From NCBI GenBank assembly GCA_019326865.1, contig GCA_019326865.1_4101.1: a stretch of DNA of 64,000 nucleotides; one strand, written 5' to 3'. The position numbers and the translations under genes were made by a program. Below are positions 7,149 through 63,861 of this stretch, piece by piece (the first letter of the stretch is position 1; every line of letters starts with the position of its first letter). Below the pieces are notes generated by a model that was not told the origin of the DNA, searched no databases, and was given only the letters and a program-made list of their open reading frames with translations. The DNA comes from a phage.

Positions 7149-7685
7149 ATGTTAGATGAAAAAATGAACGCTGGAACTCAATATAATCATCTTAAGTTGG
7201 ATACATTTGAATCAGCTATCAGTACTGCACAAGATATTATCGATATTATTAAGTACATTAAAGAAAATAAGTTAAAATGTGTGAAAACACCCGAACGTAC
7301 AATGTATAAAGATGACTGTATTCACGTATCTGTTGTTAATCCAAAAGATAAGGATGGTAATAGAGATTTCTATAATAACAGTGAGCAGTTCGAATGTGAA
7401 TATGATCCAGAATTCAGAGGCGGTTTCATGTGTTACAGTATGAAGGATACCTCACACATTGAGATACGTTCATCTAAAGGTGGCATACGTACATTAGAGT
7501 TCATTGATATAGTTTTAAATCAGGAATACTACTTTCAACTATCATTATTGTTTCCTGCATACGATTTAGGAGTTCTATTCATGTATAAGTACTTTTATGA
7601 GCACTTGAATGAAGACTTCTATCTGGACTTAGAAGATTACCAATTAGTTTGGGAAGAAATGGTAGAACTTCGCAACCACCCTTGA
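7149..7685 (+). CDS. hypothetical protein, FamA
   Basis: ATG 7149 after GAGG; 'NQEYYFQLSLLF...FYLDLEDY'. Confidence 0.6.
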   Translation: MLDEKMNAGTQYNHLKLDTFESAISTAQDIIDIIKYIKENKLKCVKTPERTMYKDDCIHVSVVNPKDKDGNRDFYNNSEQFECEYDPEFRGGFMCYSMKDTSHIEIRSSKGGIRTLEFIDIVLNQEYYFQLSLLFPAYDLGVLFMYKYFYEHLNEDFYLDLEDYQLVWEEMVELRNHP

Positions 7686-22446: not shown

Positions 22447-22463
22447 GACAAAATAGAAGTTAA

Positions 22464-22472
22464 TGATATAAT
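22464..22472 (+). promoter_or_regulatory. extended -10-like TGATATAAT element
   Basis: exact motif 5 nt upstream of terminator hairpin; functional status unclear. Confidence 0.25.
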
Positions 22473-22476
22473 GTGA

Positions 22477-22506
22477 GGTGACAGTATATACTGTCACCTT
22501 TTTTTA
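22477..22506 (+). terminator. rho-independent terminator (22-nt perfect palindrome)
   Basis: GGTGACAGTATATACTGTCACC then TTTTTTT. Confidence 0.8.
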
Positions 22507-23123
22507 ATCCTGAAAGGTTCCTATAAGGAAATGATTAAAAGCCTAATCCACTCGAAAATGTAGAGGGTAGATGAGTAGTCCTTTCAGTACGAACAGCAGA
22601 TGAAACCCGTTAGATGATGGCATAGTTTGAACCACTCACGGCAATGCGGCTGTATAAAGAACTCCAATAGGATAAAGAGAGTTCCTAGATAGACATATAA
22701 GGATCGCACCTTACCAATTATCTAAGGGAGATTTCATAAGAAATATGCGGTCGGAATTATACAATATAGTTGCGTCCAAATTTTGTGAAATCAAATACAA
22801 GTACTGGTCATATGGTATTTGTATTATGTGTCGGGATGTTTAAGACCGACGACCGTTGCTACAAGAACCGCGATAGAGAGAAACAGAGCAACCCGCTTTC
22901 GTCTCGTAAGAGAATTCGTGATATGAACTATGTGAAGGCCACCAGCGTCAAACTTTTTTGTTCTTTCCCCTGCGGGGGGATGAAATATGCTCAAGCAAAC
23001 CTCGTCAATATTAATTAAAAGACTTTATAATACTTGTAGAATTGTACATGCACCGCATGGAGAATTCTACTGATGTTGATGTAATCAACATCACGTATAT
23101 TCATTGATGTTTCCATAGGAATA
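22507..23123 (+). other. GC-enriched non-coding island (candidate structured RNA or foreign remnant)
   Basis: no convincing ORF; sampled 60-nt lines 42-48 percent GC vs about 27-33 percent in flanking genes; bounded by terminator and palindrome. Confidence 0.4.
23071..23093. repeat. perfect inverted repeat TGATGTTGAT-gta-ATCAACATCA
   Basis: 10-bp arms, 3-nt spacer, 30 nt upstream of CDS 23124; no T-run. Confidence 0.6.
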
Positions 23124-23669
23124 ATGATGGCATTTATTAAAAAAGAAAAAACTATTACTTATAAAACTTTGAATTTTGATGATTGTATTAATCAATCACA
23201 GGACGAAAATATTTTTACTGGATATGTGGTTATTAAAGAAAAAGGATGCATTTCTTATATAAAGGAATTGCAAAATGGCATTGAAGTCACTTCAGTTAAA
23301 TTACTTCCTACACAAAAACCAACAATATCAAAAGCCCAGTACGGTAATTATTTCGAGGAAAGATACAGTAATAATTTAATAAGTGTTAAAGCTCATATTG
23401 TAAAAGGAGAACTAGAAGGAGAATATAGAAAATTCAACCCACAAGGAAAATGTGTTTGGGTTAAATACTACAATTCAGGTGTTGATATAACATCTGAAAT
23501 TATAGAGTTCTTAGGGTTGTCATGTACACCTGAAACTCTTCATGACTACAAATTTAATACTGAAGAAGAGTTTAATCTGATGATGCGTTATGGATCACAT
23601 TTTAAATTTTTATATGAATATAACGTTGACAGTAGTATTTTTGATAAAATAGTACATAACTGTCTATAA
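23124..23669 (+). CDS. hypothetical protein
   Basis: 181 aa; AGGAA RBS; palindrome just upstream. Confidence 0.55.
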   Translation: MMAFIKKEKTITYKTLNFDDCINQSQDENIFTGYVVIKEKGCISYIKELQNGIEVTSVKLLPTQKPTISKAQYGNYFEERYSNNLISVKAHIVKGELEGEYRKFNPQGKCVWVKYYNSGVDITSEIIEFLGLSCTPETLHDYKFNTEEEFNLMMRYGSHFKFLYEYNVDSSIFDKIVHNCL

Positions 23670-23685
23670 CAAAAGGATTTATATA

Positions 23686-24207
23686 ATGTCGAAGAAGGAT
23701 ACTTCGAATAAGCACTCAGTTCATTTCAGTACTGGAAAAGATAACTGGACAACCCCAAAAGATTTTTTTGAAGATTTAGATGAGTTATGGGGATTTACAC
23801 TTGATGCTGCTTGTGTAGATGAGACTGCATTGTGTGATAATTTTTTCACTCCAGAAGATGATTCACTGTCACAGGATTGGGGAAATAATATAGTTTGGTT
23901 GAATCCACCATATAGTGACTTAAAAACATGGTTATCTAAAGCTGTAGATGCATATAATAACGGAGCAACTGTAGTTATTCTTGTACCCTCAAGAACCGAT
24001 ACAATTGCTTTTCAGGATTATGCTGCTAAAATATGTGATTGTATTTGTTTTATTAAGGGAAGATTGCGATTTGGTATACCAGAAGAACCCGATAAGAAAA
24101 CTGATTCAGCACCATTTCCTTCGTGTCTGATAGTTCTGGATAAGTACTTAACCACTGCTAAAATCAATTGTCTTAAATCTCTCGGATTGGTGATGAAGAA
24201 TTTATGA
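23686..24207 (+). CDS. DNA methyltransferase, phage Dam-like (N6-adenine type by NPPY motif)
   Basis: 173 aa; catalytic 'WLNPPYSD' (D/N-P-P-Y/F) motif; size typical of small phage MTases. Confidence 0.7.
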   Translation: MSKKDTSNKHSVHFSTGKDNWTTPKDFFEDLDELWGFTLDAACVDETALCDNFFTPEDDSLSQDWGNNIVWLNPPYSDLKTWLSKAVDAYNNGATVVILVPSRTDTIAFQDYAAKICDCICFIKGRLRFGIPEEPDKKTDSAPFPSCLIVLDKYLTTAKINCLKSLGLVMKNL

Positions 24208-24737
24208 AAGAAACATGTATATTATCATTTATGAGATGTAACCCAGTCCACAATGGACATGGTTTAGTTTTTGAAAAGGCCAAAACATTACAAGAACAGT
24301 ACAATGCTGATTTAAAAATTTATCTAAGCACTAGTACTGACAATATAAAAAACCCACTACCACCTGAACTAAAAATGTATTATACAGAGGGATTCTATCC
24401 TTCAGTGCAAGAGAACATCTACACAGAGGACAATCTATTTGATATAATGAGAGAACTGGATGGAAAGTACTTAGATGTTCTCTTCATATGTGGTTCTGAC
24501 CGTATTGATTCTTTTCAGAAAACCCTTGACACTTACAATGGGAAGTTGTATAATTTTTGTAATATAAAAGTAATTCAAGCAGGTATTGACCGCCAATCAA
24601 GTCGATATAGCTCAACACAAATGCGTAAGTTTGCCAAAAATGAAGATTTTGATAGTTTTCGTGAGTTTTTGCCTGGAAATGACGAGAACTTAAAAATTCA
24701 ATTATTTGAAGATGTTATAAAATACATGAGGAAATAA
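24204..24737 (+). CDS. HIGH-motif nucleotidyltransferase (NMNAT/PPAT-like)
   Basis: 'SFMRCNPVHNGH' (HxGH) and 'SSTQMR' (ISSTxxR-like) motifs; ATGA overlap with MTase. Confidence 0.65.
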   Translation: MKETCILSFMRCNPVHNGHGLVFEKAKTLQEQYNADLKIYLSTSTDNIKNPLPPELKMYYTEGFYPSVQENIYTEDNLFDIMRELDGKYLDVLFICGSDRIDSFQKTLDTYNGKLYNFCNIKVIQAGIDRQSSRYSSTQMRKFAKNEDFDSFREFLPGNDENLKIQLFEDVIKYMRK

Positions 24738-24739
24738 TT

Positions 24740-25033
24740 ATGTCAGTACTGTTCAAAACTAATCCAGTACTTTGGGAACAAAATGAACAATCAGGATTTC
24801 GTTCCATCCATGTTGAATACAAAGGTAATACAGTAGTTGCAATTATTGCTAACAAAACTCTAGGAAAATGGACCGCACAGGTTGTTCCTATGGGCTATTC
24901 TTATACATCTGATGAGGTTCAATTTTTAGCTGAACTTTATCGTCAAGTTCCTTTTATTATTAATGTGTTAGAAGGCAATGATACATTATCACATGAAGAT
25001 GTGATTGATTTTCTTGGAAACTTACATGTGTGA
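24740..25033 (+). CDS. hypothetical protein
   Basis: 97 aa ORF. Confidence 0.5.
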   Translation: MSVLFKTNPVLWEQNEQSGFRSIHVEYKGNTVVAIIANKTLGKWTAQVVPMGYSYTSDEVQFLAELYRQVPFIINVLEGNDTLSHEDVIDFLGNLHV

Positions 25034-25313
25034 TGAAATAAATCTTACAGGATATTTTTTACAAGAATCTATGATCAAATTTAGTGAACATTTCCCAGTA
25101 CTGGATGGTATCGAAATGTGGCATGTCAAACCACTGTTTCACACTTTCAGTAAAGAGCACAAAATGTTATTGACTGAAGCGAGTAAATCAAATAACATAT
25201 GTGAAATCAAAATTGGTGTAAATGTCTATAAAGGGATGGTTATCTTTTTTGACAATAACAGCAACTACTTTTATATTGTTAAGGAGCAATACGTTGACAA
25301 ATACAAATACTAA
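25005..25313 (+). CDS. hypothetical protein
   Basis: 102 aa; alt in-frame ATG at 25026. Confidence 0.45.
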   Translation: MIFLETYMCDEINLTGYFLQESMIKFSEHFPVLDGIEMWHVKPLFHTFSKEHKMLLTEASKSNNICEIKIGVNVYKGMVIFFDNNSNYFYIVKEQYVDKYKY

Positions 25314-25902
25314 TACATACTTCCGTTATCTTCGTTTAGGTCTTTCCCTTCGACCAATCCGTGGAAAGTGTGATTCACTCGCAGACCTTGACTATGCATA
25401 TGCATTACATCATGAGGGTGTACAGTATGTATTGGGTGATTATGGTGAATTTGAAGAAACAAATGACAGTACTGGAATTAATGCTGGTGTAGAAAATCTC
25501 AACAACATTGCAAACAGTTCGCGTCATGATATTGTGTTACAGATTCAAAACTTTATTGAGCAACACACTGGTAAACGTGTTTGGTGTTATGTCGGAACTG
25601 ATGCACAAATGTCTATTTCATTCGGTAATGATGACGGATATGTCGCACAGCTAATTATGGATTTTGAATCTGAAGAGAAGTTTTTAGAATTTAAAGATAA
25701 AATCATCAAATCACTCGTTGATATGGGTATCCCAGAAGATAAAATGCCAGAAGTTCAAAACATTGATGAATTTGTTTTGATTCCATCTGATGAGAAATAC
25801 GATGCTATGTTTTCTGCTCTTAATATTCCAGGAGTCATTGTGGAGTACTTTGATGATGGTGATGATAGCATCTATATCGATTTAGATGACGATGATGAAT
25901 AA
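25294..25902 (+). CDS. hypothetical acidic protein
   Basis: TTG start 7 nt after AAGGAG (25281-25286); Asp-rich C-terminus 'DLDDDDE'; terminator downstream. Confidence 0.45.
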   Translation: MTNTNTNTYFRYLRLGLSLRPIRGKCDSLADLDYAYALHHEGVQYVLGDYGEFEETNDSTGINAGVENLNNIANSSRHDIVLQIQNFIEQHTGKRVWCYVGTDAQMSISFGNDDGYVAQLIMDFESEEKFLEFKDKIIKSLVDMGIPEDKMPEVQNIDEFVLIPSDEKYDAMFSALNIPGVIVEYFDDGDDSIYIDLDDDDE

Positions 25903-49868: not shown

Positions 49869-50136
49869 TTATAACAAAATTATTTTAGTATTAAAAAGGA
49901 GTTCTAATGTTCCTTTATATTTTAAAGGAACATACTGTGTAAATCTGGTTTGGTCAGGTAAATCTTTCGGAGAGAAGGAAGTAGTGAATGACATTTTATC
50001 ATTAAAATCATCTCCTTACCTTTAAAATAGAATTGTAAACTGCCTCCTAATATGATACCATAGTTCAAATGGTAAATCAATGAACTTAACAAAAAAAACA
50101 CTTGATACTACAGTCATAATTGTTCAGTTTTTGTGC

Positions 50137-50165
50137 TTGACATAATTAATCAATTATTGTACTAT
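50137..50165 (+). promoter_or_regulatory. candidate promoter (TTGACA-17-TACTAT)
   Basis: in 376 bp divergent intergenic region upstream of CDS 50201. Confidence 0.35.
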
Positions 50166-50200
50166 TAATAATGTTCCTTAACTCAAATCCGAGGTAATTA

Positions 50201-50806
50201 ATGAAACGATTATTGAAAGAGATTATACAAACCGTTGTTATAATTGCTGCATTAAACTTTCCAGCGGCGGCAGAAGTTTCAAAAAAAGCATCTGTTTTTC
50301 TATTAAATGATCATGTTGGGTCAATTGATGGTGAACTAAATGATAAAACTGTACAAGATGTGGAGCAGTTGTGGAAAGAAAAAAAATTTAAAATTTTAAC
50401 AATTACATCACCTGGGGGTGATTTTGATGCTGGTATTAAAATGGGAAATTTTGTTAGAGACAATGGTATAAATTTAATTGTTTCTAGATATTGCAATTCA
50501 GCATGTACTGTGGTATTCTTTAGTGTGTCCCCTGAAAAACGATATATGACAAATCAATCAGTACTGGGATTACATAACATTTCAATCAAAAGTAACGTTA
50601 GAGATAGGGATAATACTTTTGTATCTGTTAGACAATTATCAACATTTACTGAAGAAATGGCAACAAAAGTAGGATTTTTATTTACACTATATTCAGCTAA
50701 TGGAATTCCACCTAGCGTTCTATATAGAGTTAGTCGTGCACGTGGTGAAGATGTTGTTATCTTAACAAAAAAAGACCTAATTCATTACGGTTCGGTAAAT
50801 CCATAA
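50201..50806 (+). CDS. secreted ClpP-fold (S14/S49-like) serine peptidase-like protein
   Basis: N-terminal signal-like 'VVIIAALNFPAAA'; 'ITSPGGDFDAGIKMGNFV' resembles ClpP SPGG core. Confidence 0.55.
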   Translation: MKRLLKEIIQTVVIIAALNFPAAAEVSKKASVFLLNDHVGSIDGELNDKTVQDVEQLWKEKKFKILTITSPGGDFDAGIKMGNFVRDNGINLIVSRYCNSACTVVFFSVSPEKRYMTNQSVLGLHNISIKSNVRDRDNTFVSVRQLSTFTEEMATKVGFLFTLYSANGIPPSVLYRVSRARGEDVVILTKKDLIHYGSVNP

Positions 50807-50874
50807 AAATAATTATAATAACAGGATGATTATGTTGTTCTTCCTTTGTTATTAACTATATCGGAAATATAACT

Positions 50875-51135
50875 ATGACAAACATCCAGAATTTGACGTC
50901 TATTATTTTTTATGCTACAGTGGTGATGTATGCTATTGTACTTATTTTAACAGTTTTTATTTACAAAGATTACAAAAAAGGCTTTATTAATAGTACAACA
51001 ATGAAGTTCAATTCTAAATTTGAAGCAATTATATTTTATGTTTTGACAACATCATATTTGTTGTGTATAATGTTACTAGGGTCATTGATTTATATTTTAT
51101 ATACAACATTATTTGCAATTGGAGCTATTTTATGA
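50875..51135 (+). CDS. small membrane protein
   Basis: 86 aa, multiple hydrophobic helices. Confidence 0.5.
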   Translation: MTNIQNLTSIIFYATVVMYAIVLILTVFIYKDYKKGFINSTTMKFNSKFEAIIFYVLTTSYLLCIMLLGSLIYILYTTLFAIGAIL

Positions 51136-51728
51136 CATGTATTATTGCACACACTGATGGTGTAACTTCATTTATTGCAGGGGACAAGATGGGGAGTGAT
51201 GGTTTTACGAAATCAATCCAAACAGAGCCTAAAGTGTTTGAGAAAGAATTTGTAAAGATTAGTGGTGATGACGGCTTGACTCGTACAAAAGATGTTATGA
51301 CAATTGGATTCACTACATCATTTCGTATGGGTCAACTGCTAACTTATAATTTAAATTTACCAGACCAAAATTCAAATGAGACGTTTCTACAGTATTTAGT
51401 ACTGAAAGTTATTCCTCTTATTCGTCAAATGTTTAAAGACGAATGGGGTGCACGTGATACAACACAAGATGTTGGTGGTGGTCAATTTATTATTTTACAC
51501 AATCATACGATTTATGAAATTCAGGAAGATTTTTCGGTTCTCCAGTCAAAATCAAGAGTTGCATCTGTTGGTAGTGGTACATATCATGCAATTGCAGCTA
51601 TGCAAGCATATATTGATCTTGAGAAAGAAACTAACGTACAACTACATGAACGTATCAAATCCATTTTCAAAATTGTTAGTGATAATGTATCGAGTGTAAG
51701 CGAAGAGTTTGATGTATTAAAATATTAA
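51132..51728 (+). CDS. HslV/proteasome beta-like Ntn-hydrolase peptidase
   Basis: ATGA start; 'MTCIIAHTDGVTSFIAGDKMGSDG' vs HslV 'TTIVSV...VIAGDGQATLG'; 'VGSGTYHAIAAMQAY' vs HslV GSGG motif. Confidence 0.55.
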   Translation: MTCIIAHTDGVTSFIAGDKMGSDGFTKSIQTEPKVFEKEFVKISGDDGLTRTKDVMTIGFTTSFRMGQLLTYNLNLPDQNSNETFLQYLVLKVIPLIRQMFKDEWGARDTTQDVGGGQFIILHNHTIYEIQEDFSVLQSKSRVASVGSGTYHAIAAMQAYIDLEKETNVQLHERIKSIFKIVSDNVSSVSEEFDVLKY

Positions 51729-62055: not shown

Positions 62056-63861
62056 ATGCAGCTAGATAAATTATATAATGACGTAACGAATTTCCTAAAT
62101 CAGAGTAATACAGATCTCACAAATGAAAATGCGAACAAAGATGCGAAGTGCGTCAATACACACAGGGATTTACTTGCAGGTATCCTATCTAAACATTATT
62201 CACAAGATGTTATCCCAAATGAACTAATGCAGTGGCATAATGATGGTTATGGACATATTCATGATTTAGACTACTATATCAGTCCATTAACCAACTGTTG
62301 CTTAGTCAACTACCCAGATATGCTAAAAAATGGATTTACTATTGGCTGTGCTAAAATTGAAGAACCAAAAAGTTTTAGTGTTGCATGTACAGTACTAACA
62401 CAGATTGTACAAGCTGTAGCTAGTTCACAATACGGAGGTCAATCGTTGGCTCACATTGATGTCGGGTTGGAACCTTACGTTAAAAAGTCATGGTATAAAC
62501 TATTAGAAAAACAAAAGAAATATAATCTAAGTGATGAATACATTGAAGAAGAATTACGAAAAGAAGTATACGATGGATGTCAAACATTACTTTATCAAAC
62601 TAATTCAATGATTAGTACTAATGGTCAAGCTGCATTTATTTCTCTTAGTTTAGGTTTGAATACTTCCAAATTTGGTAAATTAATCACCGAACAGTACTTA
62701 AAAGTTCATGAGAATGGTTTAGGTAAAGATAAGATTACTCCAGTGTTTCCTAAAGTTATTTTCTTTTTACAAGATGGTATAAACATGAATACCAATGATT
62801 GTAATTATGACCTTAAACAGTTAGCTATGCGTTGTGCATCAAAGCGAATCTACCCAGACTTTGTTTCAGTTCCATTAAATCACAAAGTGACGGGAAGTAG
62901 TAGTACTGCGGTAACACCAATGGGTTGTCGTTCATTCTTAGGAAAATGGGAAGATTCAAATGGAAATGAACAATATAACGGTCGCTTCAATTTAGGTGTA
63001 GTTTCTATCAATTTACCACTAATTGCTCTTGAAAGTGCTACAGATGGAGAGTTTTTTGATAAGATAGATGAGCATATGAATATTGCATATCGTGCTCAGA
63101 TGAACCGCGTAGAGCGTTTAAAAGGTACAAAAGCGAAACAGAATCCAATTTTGTTTATGGAAGGTGCATTAGCACGTTTAGATGCAGAAGAAACTATTGA
63201 CAAGCTATTTTACAATGGTTATGCTAGTATTAGTATTGGTTATGTTGGACTTGTTGAATGTTCGGAAATCCTCACTGGTTCTATCAGTAAGGAGTTTTGT
63301 ATGTCAGTACTGAATTATATGAAAGTAAAATGCGATGAGTTTAAAAAAGAAAGTAATATTGCTTTTAGTTTATATGGAACTCCAGCAGAGTCACTTTGTT
63401 ATAAATTTGCACGTTGCATTGAAGCAAAGTATCCGTCTGTTCTAAAACGTAATTATATTACAAATTCATTCCATCAACCAGTATGGGTTGAAAGTTCTGC
63501 TTTTGAAAAGTGGGATTATGAGGAAAACTTTGCTTATCTAAGCAATGGTGGTAATATTAGCTATGTCGAAACACCAAACTTAACAAACAACATTCAAGCA
63601 CTTGAAACATTAATCAATTATGCCTATAAAAAAATTCCATATTTTGGAATAAACCAGCCTATAGATCATTGTCATAAATGTAATTTTGAAGGTGAATTCA
63701 GCGTCGATAAAAACGGTTTCCACTGTCCAGTTTGTAATAATAGAGATGAAAAATCTATGTCAGTTATTCGAAGAGTTAGCGGATATCTTAGTGCACCAAA
63801 TAGTCGCCCATTCAATAAAGGAAAGCAAGATGAAGTGATTCAGAGAATTCGCCATTTATAA
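62056..63861 (+). CDS. nrdD: anaerobic ribonucleoside-triphosphate reductase
   Basis: ATG 62056 after AAGGA; 'DLTNENANKD...RDLLAGILSKH' parallels T4 NrdD; glycyl-radical 'RRVSGYL'; C-terminal 'CHKC...CPVC'; uninterrupted. Confidence 0.9.
   Translation: MQLDKLYNDVTNFLNQSNTDLTNENANKDAKCVNTHRDLLAGILSKHYSQDVIPNELMQWHNDGYGHIHDLDYYISPLTNCCLVNYPDMLKNGFTIGCAKIEEPKSFSVACTVLTQIVQAVASSQYGGQSLAHIDVGLEPYVKKSWYKLLEKQKKYNLSDEYIEEELRKEVYDGCQTLLYQTNSMISTNGQAAFISLSLGLNTSKFGKLITEQYLKVHENGLGKDKITPVFPKVIFFLQDGINMNTNDCNYDLKQLAMRCASKRIYPDFVSVPLNHKVTGSSSTAVTPMGCRSFLGKWEDSNGNEQYNGRFNLGVVSINLPLIALESATDGEFFDKIDEHMNIAYRAQMNRVERLKGTKAKQNPILFMEGALARLDAEETIDKLFYNGYASISIGYVGLVECSEILTGSISKEFCMSVLNYMKVKCDEFKKESNIAFSLYGTPAESLCYKFARCIEAKYPSVLKRNYITNSFHQPVWVESSAFEKWDYEENFAYLSNGGNISYVETPNLTNNIQALETLINYAYKKIPYFGINQPIDHCHKCNFEGEFSVDKNGFHCPVCNNRDEKSMSVIRRVSGYLSAPNSRPFNKGKQDEVIQRIRHL

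Follow-up and report, generated by a model that had tools for sequence, protein, structure and literature searches.

A small DNA methyltransferase gene whose end overlaps the start of a nucleotidyltransferase gene of the HIGH superfamily raises the question of whether the two products serve one process or are simply neighbors. The locus is at positions 23,686 to 24,737 of a 64,000-nucleotide stretch of phage DNA (GenBank assembly GCA_019326865.1, contig GCA_019326865.1_4101.1), the whole of which is here termed the window. On balance the pair is probably two ordinary, separately acting enzymes, a protective methyltransferase and a nucleotidyltransferase of adenylyltransferase type, encoded in a dense plus-strand gene block of an Asteriusvirus jumbo coliphage, with the genes co-transcribed and likely translationally coupled.

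The locus and its relatives

The window is from an Asteriusvirus jumbo coliphage. Over positions 23000-25500 it shares 99.2% identity with Escherichia phage UE-S1 and 92-94% with 121Q, PBECO4, phAPEC6 and Sharanji, Asteriusvirus jumbo myophages with genomes of some 350 kb. In the region upstream of the genes, UE-S1 (174406-175136, 731 nt; 90.8% identity) has about 54 bases that are extra with respect to the window (22447-23123, 677 nt), and the window is therefore from a close relative of UE-S1 and not from the same genome. Both genes are already known, being annotated in GenBank records of relatives, as UES1_370 ('DNA N-6-adenine-methyltransferase') and UES1_371 ('putative cytitidyltransferase') in UE-S1, and as gp417 and gp418 in 121Q. 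As the methylase, moreover, is taken as probable protective methylation in the genome papers of UE-S1 and phAPEC6, the gene pair itself matters little. The features of the locus are as follows.

23002-23031, + strand: promoter-like TCGTCA-18 nt-TATAAT, 10 of 12 matches in a consensus scan, putative function
23124-23669, + strand: 181-aa ORF, phrog_16210, directly 5′ of the methyltransferase gene, a position common to all clade relatives
23673-23677, + strand: Shine-Dalgarno-like AAGGA, 8 nt 5′ of the methyltransferase ATG, read from the sequence
23686-24207, + strand: orphan N6-adenine DNA methyltransferase of the phage 'Dam' family PF05869, 173 aa, by PF05869 profile
23902-23913, + strand: NPPY codons, catalytic motif IV, read from the sequence
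24204-24207, + strand: ATGA stop/start overlap of the two genes (TGA 24205-24207, ATG 24204-24206)
24204-24737, + strand: HIGH-superfamily nucleotidyltransferase, probable adenylyltransferase of a phage-specific family, 177 aa, by motifs and profiles
24249-24260, + strand: HNGH (HxGH) codons, nucleotide-binding motif, read from the sequence
24526-24554, + strand: perfect sigma-70 consensus promoter TTGACA-17 nt-TATAAT, facing downstream, inside the nucleotidyltransferase ORF
24609-24626, + strand: SSTQMR codons (ISxTxxR-type motif), read from the sequence

An initial annotation, made from the letters alone, had described a methyltransferase ORF and a nucleotidyltransferase ORF sharing an ATGA, with NPPY, HxGH and SSTxxR motifs. 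Both plus-strand ORFs are present at the coordinates read for them with the junction legible in the sequence, and the motifs are there as NPPY at residues 73-76 of the first protein, and as HNGH at residues 16-19 and SSTQMR at residues 136-141 of the second. Orthologues of both proteins in other phages are 33-95% identical, and on the strength of profile matches and this conservation both are judged to be real genes and not chance ORFs.

The promoter within the nucleotidyltransferase ORF is encoded within the conserved LDxYNGxLYN codons, and 121Q, Klebsiella RCIP0023 and Salmonella 7t3 retain both of its hexamers with a spacer that varies. There are 32 perfect sigma-70 consensus sites in 121Q, all on the plus strand, where about one is expected by chance; two further ones in the window are at 7682 and 51043.

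Co-expression of the two genes had been argued from the ATGA overlap. It is plausible, presumably as early expression, and the two genes stay close across the clade, overlapping by as much as 8 nt or lying at most a few nucleotides apart. What does not stand is the overlap as a sign of shared function: in a crude set of plus-strand genes in the window, 18 of 119 junctions overlap by 4 nt and 57 of the 119 have an overlap of some length, and with such arrangements common in this genome the ATGA says little about a functional link. Conservation of adjacency is a different matter. The order methyltransferase then nucleotidyltransferase is kept in every Rak2-like jumbo phage checked, among them Klebsiella RCIP0023, Salmonella 7t3, Xanthomonas XbC2 and Erwinia pEa_SNUABM_49 (42-66% identity for the methyltransferase, 33-57% for the nucleotidyltransferase), as well as in two metagenomic relatives (L018 and L019). 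Its persistence where the proteins are just 33-42% identical could reflect a functional link that the description 'separately acting' misses, but the flanking genes are equally syntenic, so that adjacency alone is no proof of a shared pathway. Outside the clade, the nucleotidyltransferase is found unaccompanied by the methyltransferase in Pseudomonas phage Deifobo, Vibrio phage 2.275.O, cyanophage S-RIM2 and Melnitz, and a 47%-identical methyltransferase is found unaccompanied by the nucleotidyltransferase in locus L020.

The methyltransferase and the excess of AGTACT

The methyltransferase matches PF05869 with 110.9 bits (gathering cut-off 28.1, E 7e-32, residues 16-156), and also phrog_111 and the PADLOC orphan-methyltransferase model. 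Its predicted fold is that of class I Rossmann methyltransferases. The earlier designation 'Dam-like' is thus borne out by the PF05869 profile and the PADLOC assignment; with the narrower NCBIfam equivalog TIGR01712 the score is 91.6 bits, just under the cut-off of 97.05. In an alignment of 30 homologues, N73, P75 and Y76 of the NPPY motif are invariant, as are W21, P24, F37, D40, R103, T104, G125, R126 and a block APFPS, and the members from the jumbo phage clade have a C-terminal tail and a loop insertion that are missing from family members of 140-150 aa. No nuclease partner is annotated beside the gene, and the PADLOC class is that of an orphan enzyme. Hia5-type non-specific adenine methylases were considered as relatives and dropped, the relevant paper giving DPPY and FxGxG for them and making no link to PF05869.

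Stx-phage, T1-like and other characterized phage members of the PF05869 family are DNA GATC methylases. With the Dam enzymes of Stx-converting and T1-like phages (PF05869/TIGR01712) the window protein has in common its small single-domain form, NPPY, orphan status, phage encoding and strong profile match. It differs from them in sequence (31-35% identity), in falling under the TIGR01712 cut-off, and in its clade-specific tail and loop insertion; at that level of identity GATC specificity is not transferable. GATC is itself reduced to about half of expectation (619 observed and 1088 expected in 121Q; 0.46-0.57 of expectation over window and 121Q), a depletion that is hard to square with full protection of this site by the phage. 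On the favored reading the protein would be an orphan S-adenosylmethionine-dependent N6-adenine methyltransferase acting on a short motif in phage DNA, and its likeliest role would be protection against host restriction at sites that the genome does not avoid. Candidates for the motif are GATC, from family precedent, and, as a possibility, GTAC or AGTACT.

Action on RNA, for instance on 5′-terminal or cap-adjacent adenosines, such that together with the nucleotidyltransferase it would modify RNA 5′ ends, is highly improbable, the characterized phage members of the family being DNA methylases and the protein being devoid of an RNA-binding domain. There is a match to PCIF1/CAPAM, the cap-specific adenosine-N6 methyltransferase, which belongs to eukaryotes, acts on RNA, has WW and helical domains, and is 17% identical to the window protein. 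Shared ancestry is the simplest account of the resemblance, which is read in that way and not as evidence for an RNA substrate, since a sequence search against PDB chains gave no solved structure for a PF05869 member and since Iyer et al. place the PCIF1 and DIRS1 methyltransferases in an EcoKI/TaqI-type group whose eukaryotic clades derive from bacteria (PMC4738411). Direct sequence searches of both the methyltransferase and the nucleotidyltransferase against PDB chains gave nothing useful, and literature searches gave no functional data on either.

A link of the methyltransferase to the palindrome AGTACT had been raised in the initial annotation as speculation, and is neither borne out nor contradicted by the data. 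The relevance of AGTACT comes from its abundance, with 165 occurrences in the window against 21.5 expected and 903 in 121Q against 118 expected, about 8-fold. For CAGTACTG the figures in 121Q are 194 and 3.4, and the most over-represented of all hexamers there are CAGTAC and GTACTG. AGTACT is spread genome-wide, outside coding sequence as well as in each of the three codon phases, and the selection responsible must therefore act on DNA and not on peptide. The counterpart is avoidance. GCGC has no occurrence in 121Q (about 290 expected), and the palindrome counts for window and 121Q are also zero for AGCGCT, AGGCCT, CAGCTG, CCATGG, CGTACG, CTCGAG, CTGCAG, GAGCTC and others. Many restriction palindromes are thus avoided almost completely in a clade where AGTACT is in 8-fold excess, and whether that excess is tied to either phage methylase is a testable question.

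The proposal that the methyltransferase writes m6A on AGTACT or its core GTAC, the pair being a clade-specific genome-marking system in which enrichment and methylase are functionally linked, has several observations in its favor and is nevertheless considered unlikely. All loci with the gene pair (L001-L006, L018 and L019) show enrichment (8- to 14-fold) and lack GCGC, and neither trait is found in those checked that have one gene or neither (L007-L010, L020 and L021). GTAC is the least avoided 4-bp palindrome in genomes from which many others are absent, as would fit a site that is protected and so need not be avoided, and the clade methyltransferases carry the extension and insertion lacking in the shorter members. 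However, all the enriched genomes belong to one clade, so that the association amounts to a single phylogenetic observation, and protection accounts for lack of avoidance but not for an 8-fold excess. A second candidate fits equally well, namely a C5 cytosine methyltransferase (PF00145; 121Q gp91, 62483-63343) that is conserved across the same Rak2-like clade at 63-78% identity. Each candidate has a distant homologue in a setting with no enrichment: L020, with the 47%-identical Dam homologue, has 5 AGTACT where 4.0 are expected and a normal level of GCGC, and phiWec187 has a 51%-identical homologue of the C5 enzyme in a genome with no enrichment. For that reason neither methylase is favored for AGTACT. 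No methylome for the Rak2-like clade was found in the searchable literature. The extended form of the proposal, in which the pair is a working module with the methyltransferase self-labeling some 900 AGTACT/GTAC sites per genome and the nucleotidyltransferase supplying or recycling a nucleotide cofactor, is more doubtful still and is regarded as improbable.

Two side observations are pertinent to these genomes. The C5 methyltransferase appears split or interrupted in UE-S1, ph0011, TH47, JNE01 and A4, with residues 78-286 only being matched in one place in UE-S1 and a second place being found elsewhere in that record. Within 117089-131255 on the minus strand of 121Q is a run of over twelve paralogues that the record labels RCC1-like 'DNA condensation' proteins, and these are possible candidates for readers of a genome-wide DNA motif.

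The nucleotidyltransferase family

The second protein matches phrog_3041, 'cytidyltransferase', over residues 2-176 (E 5.2e-56), though that database name is a superfamily label only. Alone it scores 15.6 bits against Pfam CTP_transf_like (PF01467), under the cut-off of 21, and of 66 long relatives recovered by profile search 47 match CTP_transf_like at E <= 0.001 (best 3.6e-8), with DUF5824 present in 15 and a Zeta-toxin/AAA_33 kinase domain in 6. A word-indexed search reached close relatives only, and an exhaustive profile search, used in its place, gave 3604 homologues at E <= 0.001 and 2388 at E <= 1e-10. With tblastn 562 phage records were obtained, mostly of T4-like cyanomyoviruses, the remainder including Rak2-like jumbo phages, PA5oct-like phages, a Vibrio jumbo phage and Melnitz. 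This is accordingly a large viral family widespread in T4-like cyanophages, and identification of its substrate would give a function to an abundant ocean-virus gene.

Across 35 members of the family H19, N50, R100, N112, S136 and R141 are invariant, and R11, P14 and G18 nearly so, with the predicted fold being Rossmann-like alpha/beta and nucleotide-binding. The first position of HxGH is H16 in the Rak2-like clade and elsewhere in the family is usually T, as it is in phosphopantetheine adenylyltransferase (PPAT). The family profile aligns over full length with PPAT chains (E 1.2e-5 with H. pylori PPAT) and more weakly with nicotinamide mononucleotide adenylyltransferases (NMNATs). The initial annotation's 'NMNAT/PPAT-like' HIGH nucleotidyltransferase is thus, on motifs, profile alignments and fold search, an accurate label, and the check by profile search that it had called for gives the phrog_3041 match and the path through the family profile to PPAT, with the single protein remaining under the Pfam cut-off. 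On the favored reading, the protein would be a HIGH-motif alpha/beta nucleotidyltransferase of the phage-specific family known as 'cytitidyltransferase' in T4-like cyanophages, transferring an NMP (probably AMP, taken from ATP) onto a small phosphorylated molecule and releasing pyrophosphate, the type of reaction that NMN and phosphopantetheine adenylyltransferases carry out.

The cyanophage proteins (PHROG 3041/395) are of the same family, with 31-37% identity between the window protein and their N-terminal domain and with the same conserved residues. There, the domain lies at the N-terminal end of proteins reaching about 1000 aa (1021 aa for S-RIM2 SWTG_00144), whereas in the window it stands alone at 177 aa, beside a methyltransferase, and has H in place of T in HxGH. 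One cyanophage homologue has been detected in virions, its function being called unclear there (PMC9146016). The genes flanking the window nucleotidyltransferase were compared with the C-terminal domains of the long proteins in cyanophages as possible counterparts, and no correspondence was found; the sole match in that comparison was between the upstream 181-aa ORF and a Vibrio phage protein, and was weak and repeat-like (E 1e-6). A PADLOC scan of the nucleotidyltransferase and both flanking ORFs gave nothing.

What the acceptor might be is the point at which the readings part. Supply of NAD had been put forward earlier, and in its fuller form this has the enzyme acting on NMN or NaMN as an adenylyltransferase, so that NAD+ is regenerated in infection to feed NAD-consuming enzymes of the phage or to counter NAD-depleting defenses of the host. 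The fold resemblance stands. Little else of that claim does, and the fuller form is doubtful: the NCBIfam NMNAT model TIGR00482 gives 17.4 bits against a cut-off of 112.45, with the HxGH stretch alone matching, and at the level of sequence profiles PPAT outscores any NMNAT. Nor are Nampt, NMNAT, PnuC or NadR annotated in 121Q, whose record was covered essentially end to end by annotation and not by HMM; a role in NAD synthesis is left with no support from context by the lack there of an annotated Nampt or NMNAT. In the related phage CBB, separate genes were called possible NMNATs by its authors (CBB_113 and 361), together with a Nampt, and there a homologue of the window protein would be an extra enzyme. 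The alternative that it is PPAT-like, making dephospho-CoA or a related ADP-linked cofactor, draws on the better profile alignment and is yet improbable in its turn, given that the protein is matched by no NCBIfam CoaD model, that identity to PPAT is 13-19%, that no other gene of the CoA pathway is annotated in 121Q, and that the Rak2-like clade has H and not T at the first HxGH position. To NadM/archaeal NMNAT and CoaD alike the identity is 13-19%, scores with the curated models of both are under cut-off, and, in distinction from those enzymes, no pathway partners are annotated in the phage genome. The family-specific invariance of N50, R100 and N112 suggests an acceptor pocket distinct from those of NMNAT and CoaD. 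An adenylyltransferase-type enzyme acting separately from the methyltransferase is the reading retained, with NAD synthesis possible as one of several activities and not the favored one.

Genes of potential relevance to NAD do occur elsewhere in 121Q, namely those for Sir2, for three Nudix hydrolases and for a macro-domain protein. At 220175-221475 a Sir2-like NAD-dependent deacylase is directly followed by a Nudix hydrolase (approximately 49900-51200 of the window, estimated by offset), and at 258289-258687 and 259518-259994 are a NudE-like Nudix hydrolase and the macro-domain protein. The set suggests handling of NAD or ADP-ribose by the phage, though no gene for NAD synthesis is annotated.

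A probable structured RNA upstream of the pair

More unusual than the gene pair, and more deserving of follow-up, is what adjoins it: a structured RNA that is present in multiple copies and is uncatalogued. The apparent gap of about 680 bp 5′ of the operon holds an RNA-like element of about 465 nt (22543-23007, + strand) whose nucleotide identity to the equivalent regions of Xanthomonas, Salmonella, Erwinia, Yersinia, Serratia, Pectobacterium and Cronobacter jumbo phages is 70-76%, while the proteins on either side share only 33-45% identity across those phages. With the element as BLAST query there are 4-5 matching places per genome. In 121Q the copies number four, all on the plus strand and near 90, 193, 247 and 327 kb, the paralogues, found by nucleotide match, being as follows.

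121Q 90332-90783, + strand: paralogue of the RNA element
121Q 247513-248062, + strand: paralogue of the RNA element
121Q 326676-327171, + strand: paralogue of the RNA element

RNAalifold predicts 76 pairs, in 40 of which there are compensatory double changes. Over 24 sequences 93.3% of pair cells can pair, compared with 78.8% in shuffles, none of 500 of which reached the observed value, and with 39-47% in slid controls in which the partner was moved by 1-3 columns. Cells with double changes number 253, against 79 in shuffles and 29-43 in the slid controls. The frequency of G-U pairs points to the plus strand as the folded one. Scans with Rfam 15 of the upstream element and one paralogue gave no family match. 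A conserved 27-mer of the element is found in IMG/VR in jumbo-phage contigs or in shorter contigs only, and in a bacterial genome collection its two sole occurrences are on contigs of about 200 kb. From comparative evidence of this kind the element looks like a large, uncatalogued, multi-copy structured RNA specific to Rak2-like phages. It might be a stand-alone non-coding RNA, a processive-antitermination element, or a primer or origin RNA.

An intrinsic terminator directly follows the conserved core in 14 of the 24 copies. On the 3′ side of the terminator region the alignment has a conserved C-rich hairpin and the TCGTCA block, which is kept in the 24 related upstream elements and which, in the window, begins the promoter-like site at 23002-23031, about 90 nt 5′ of the first ORF of the transcription unit.
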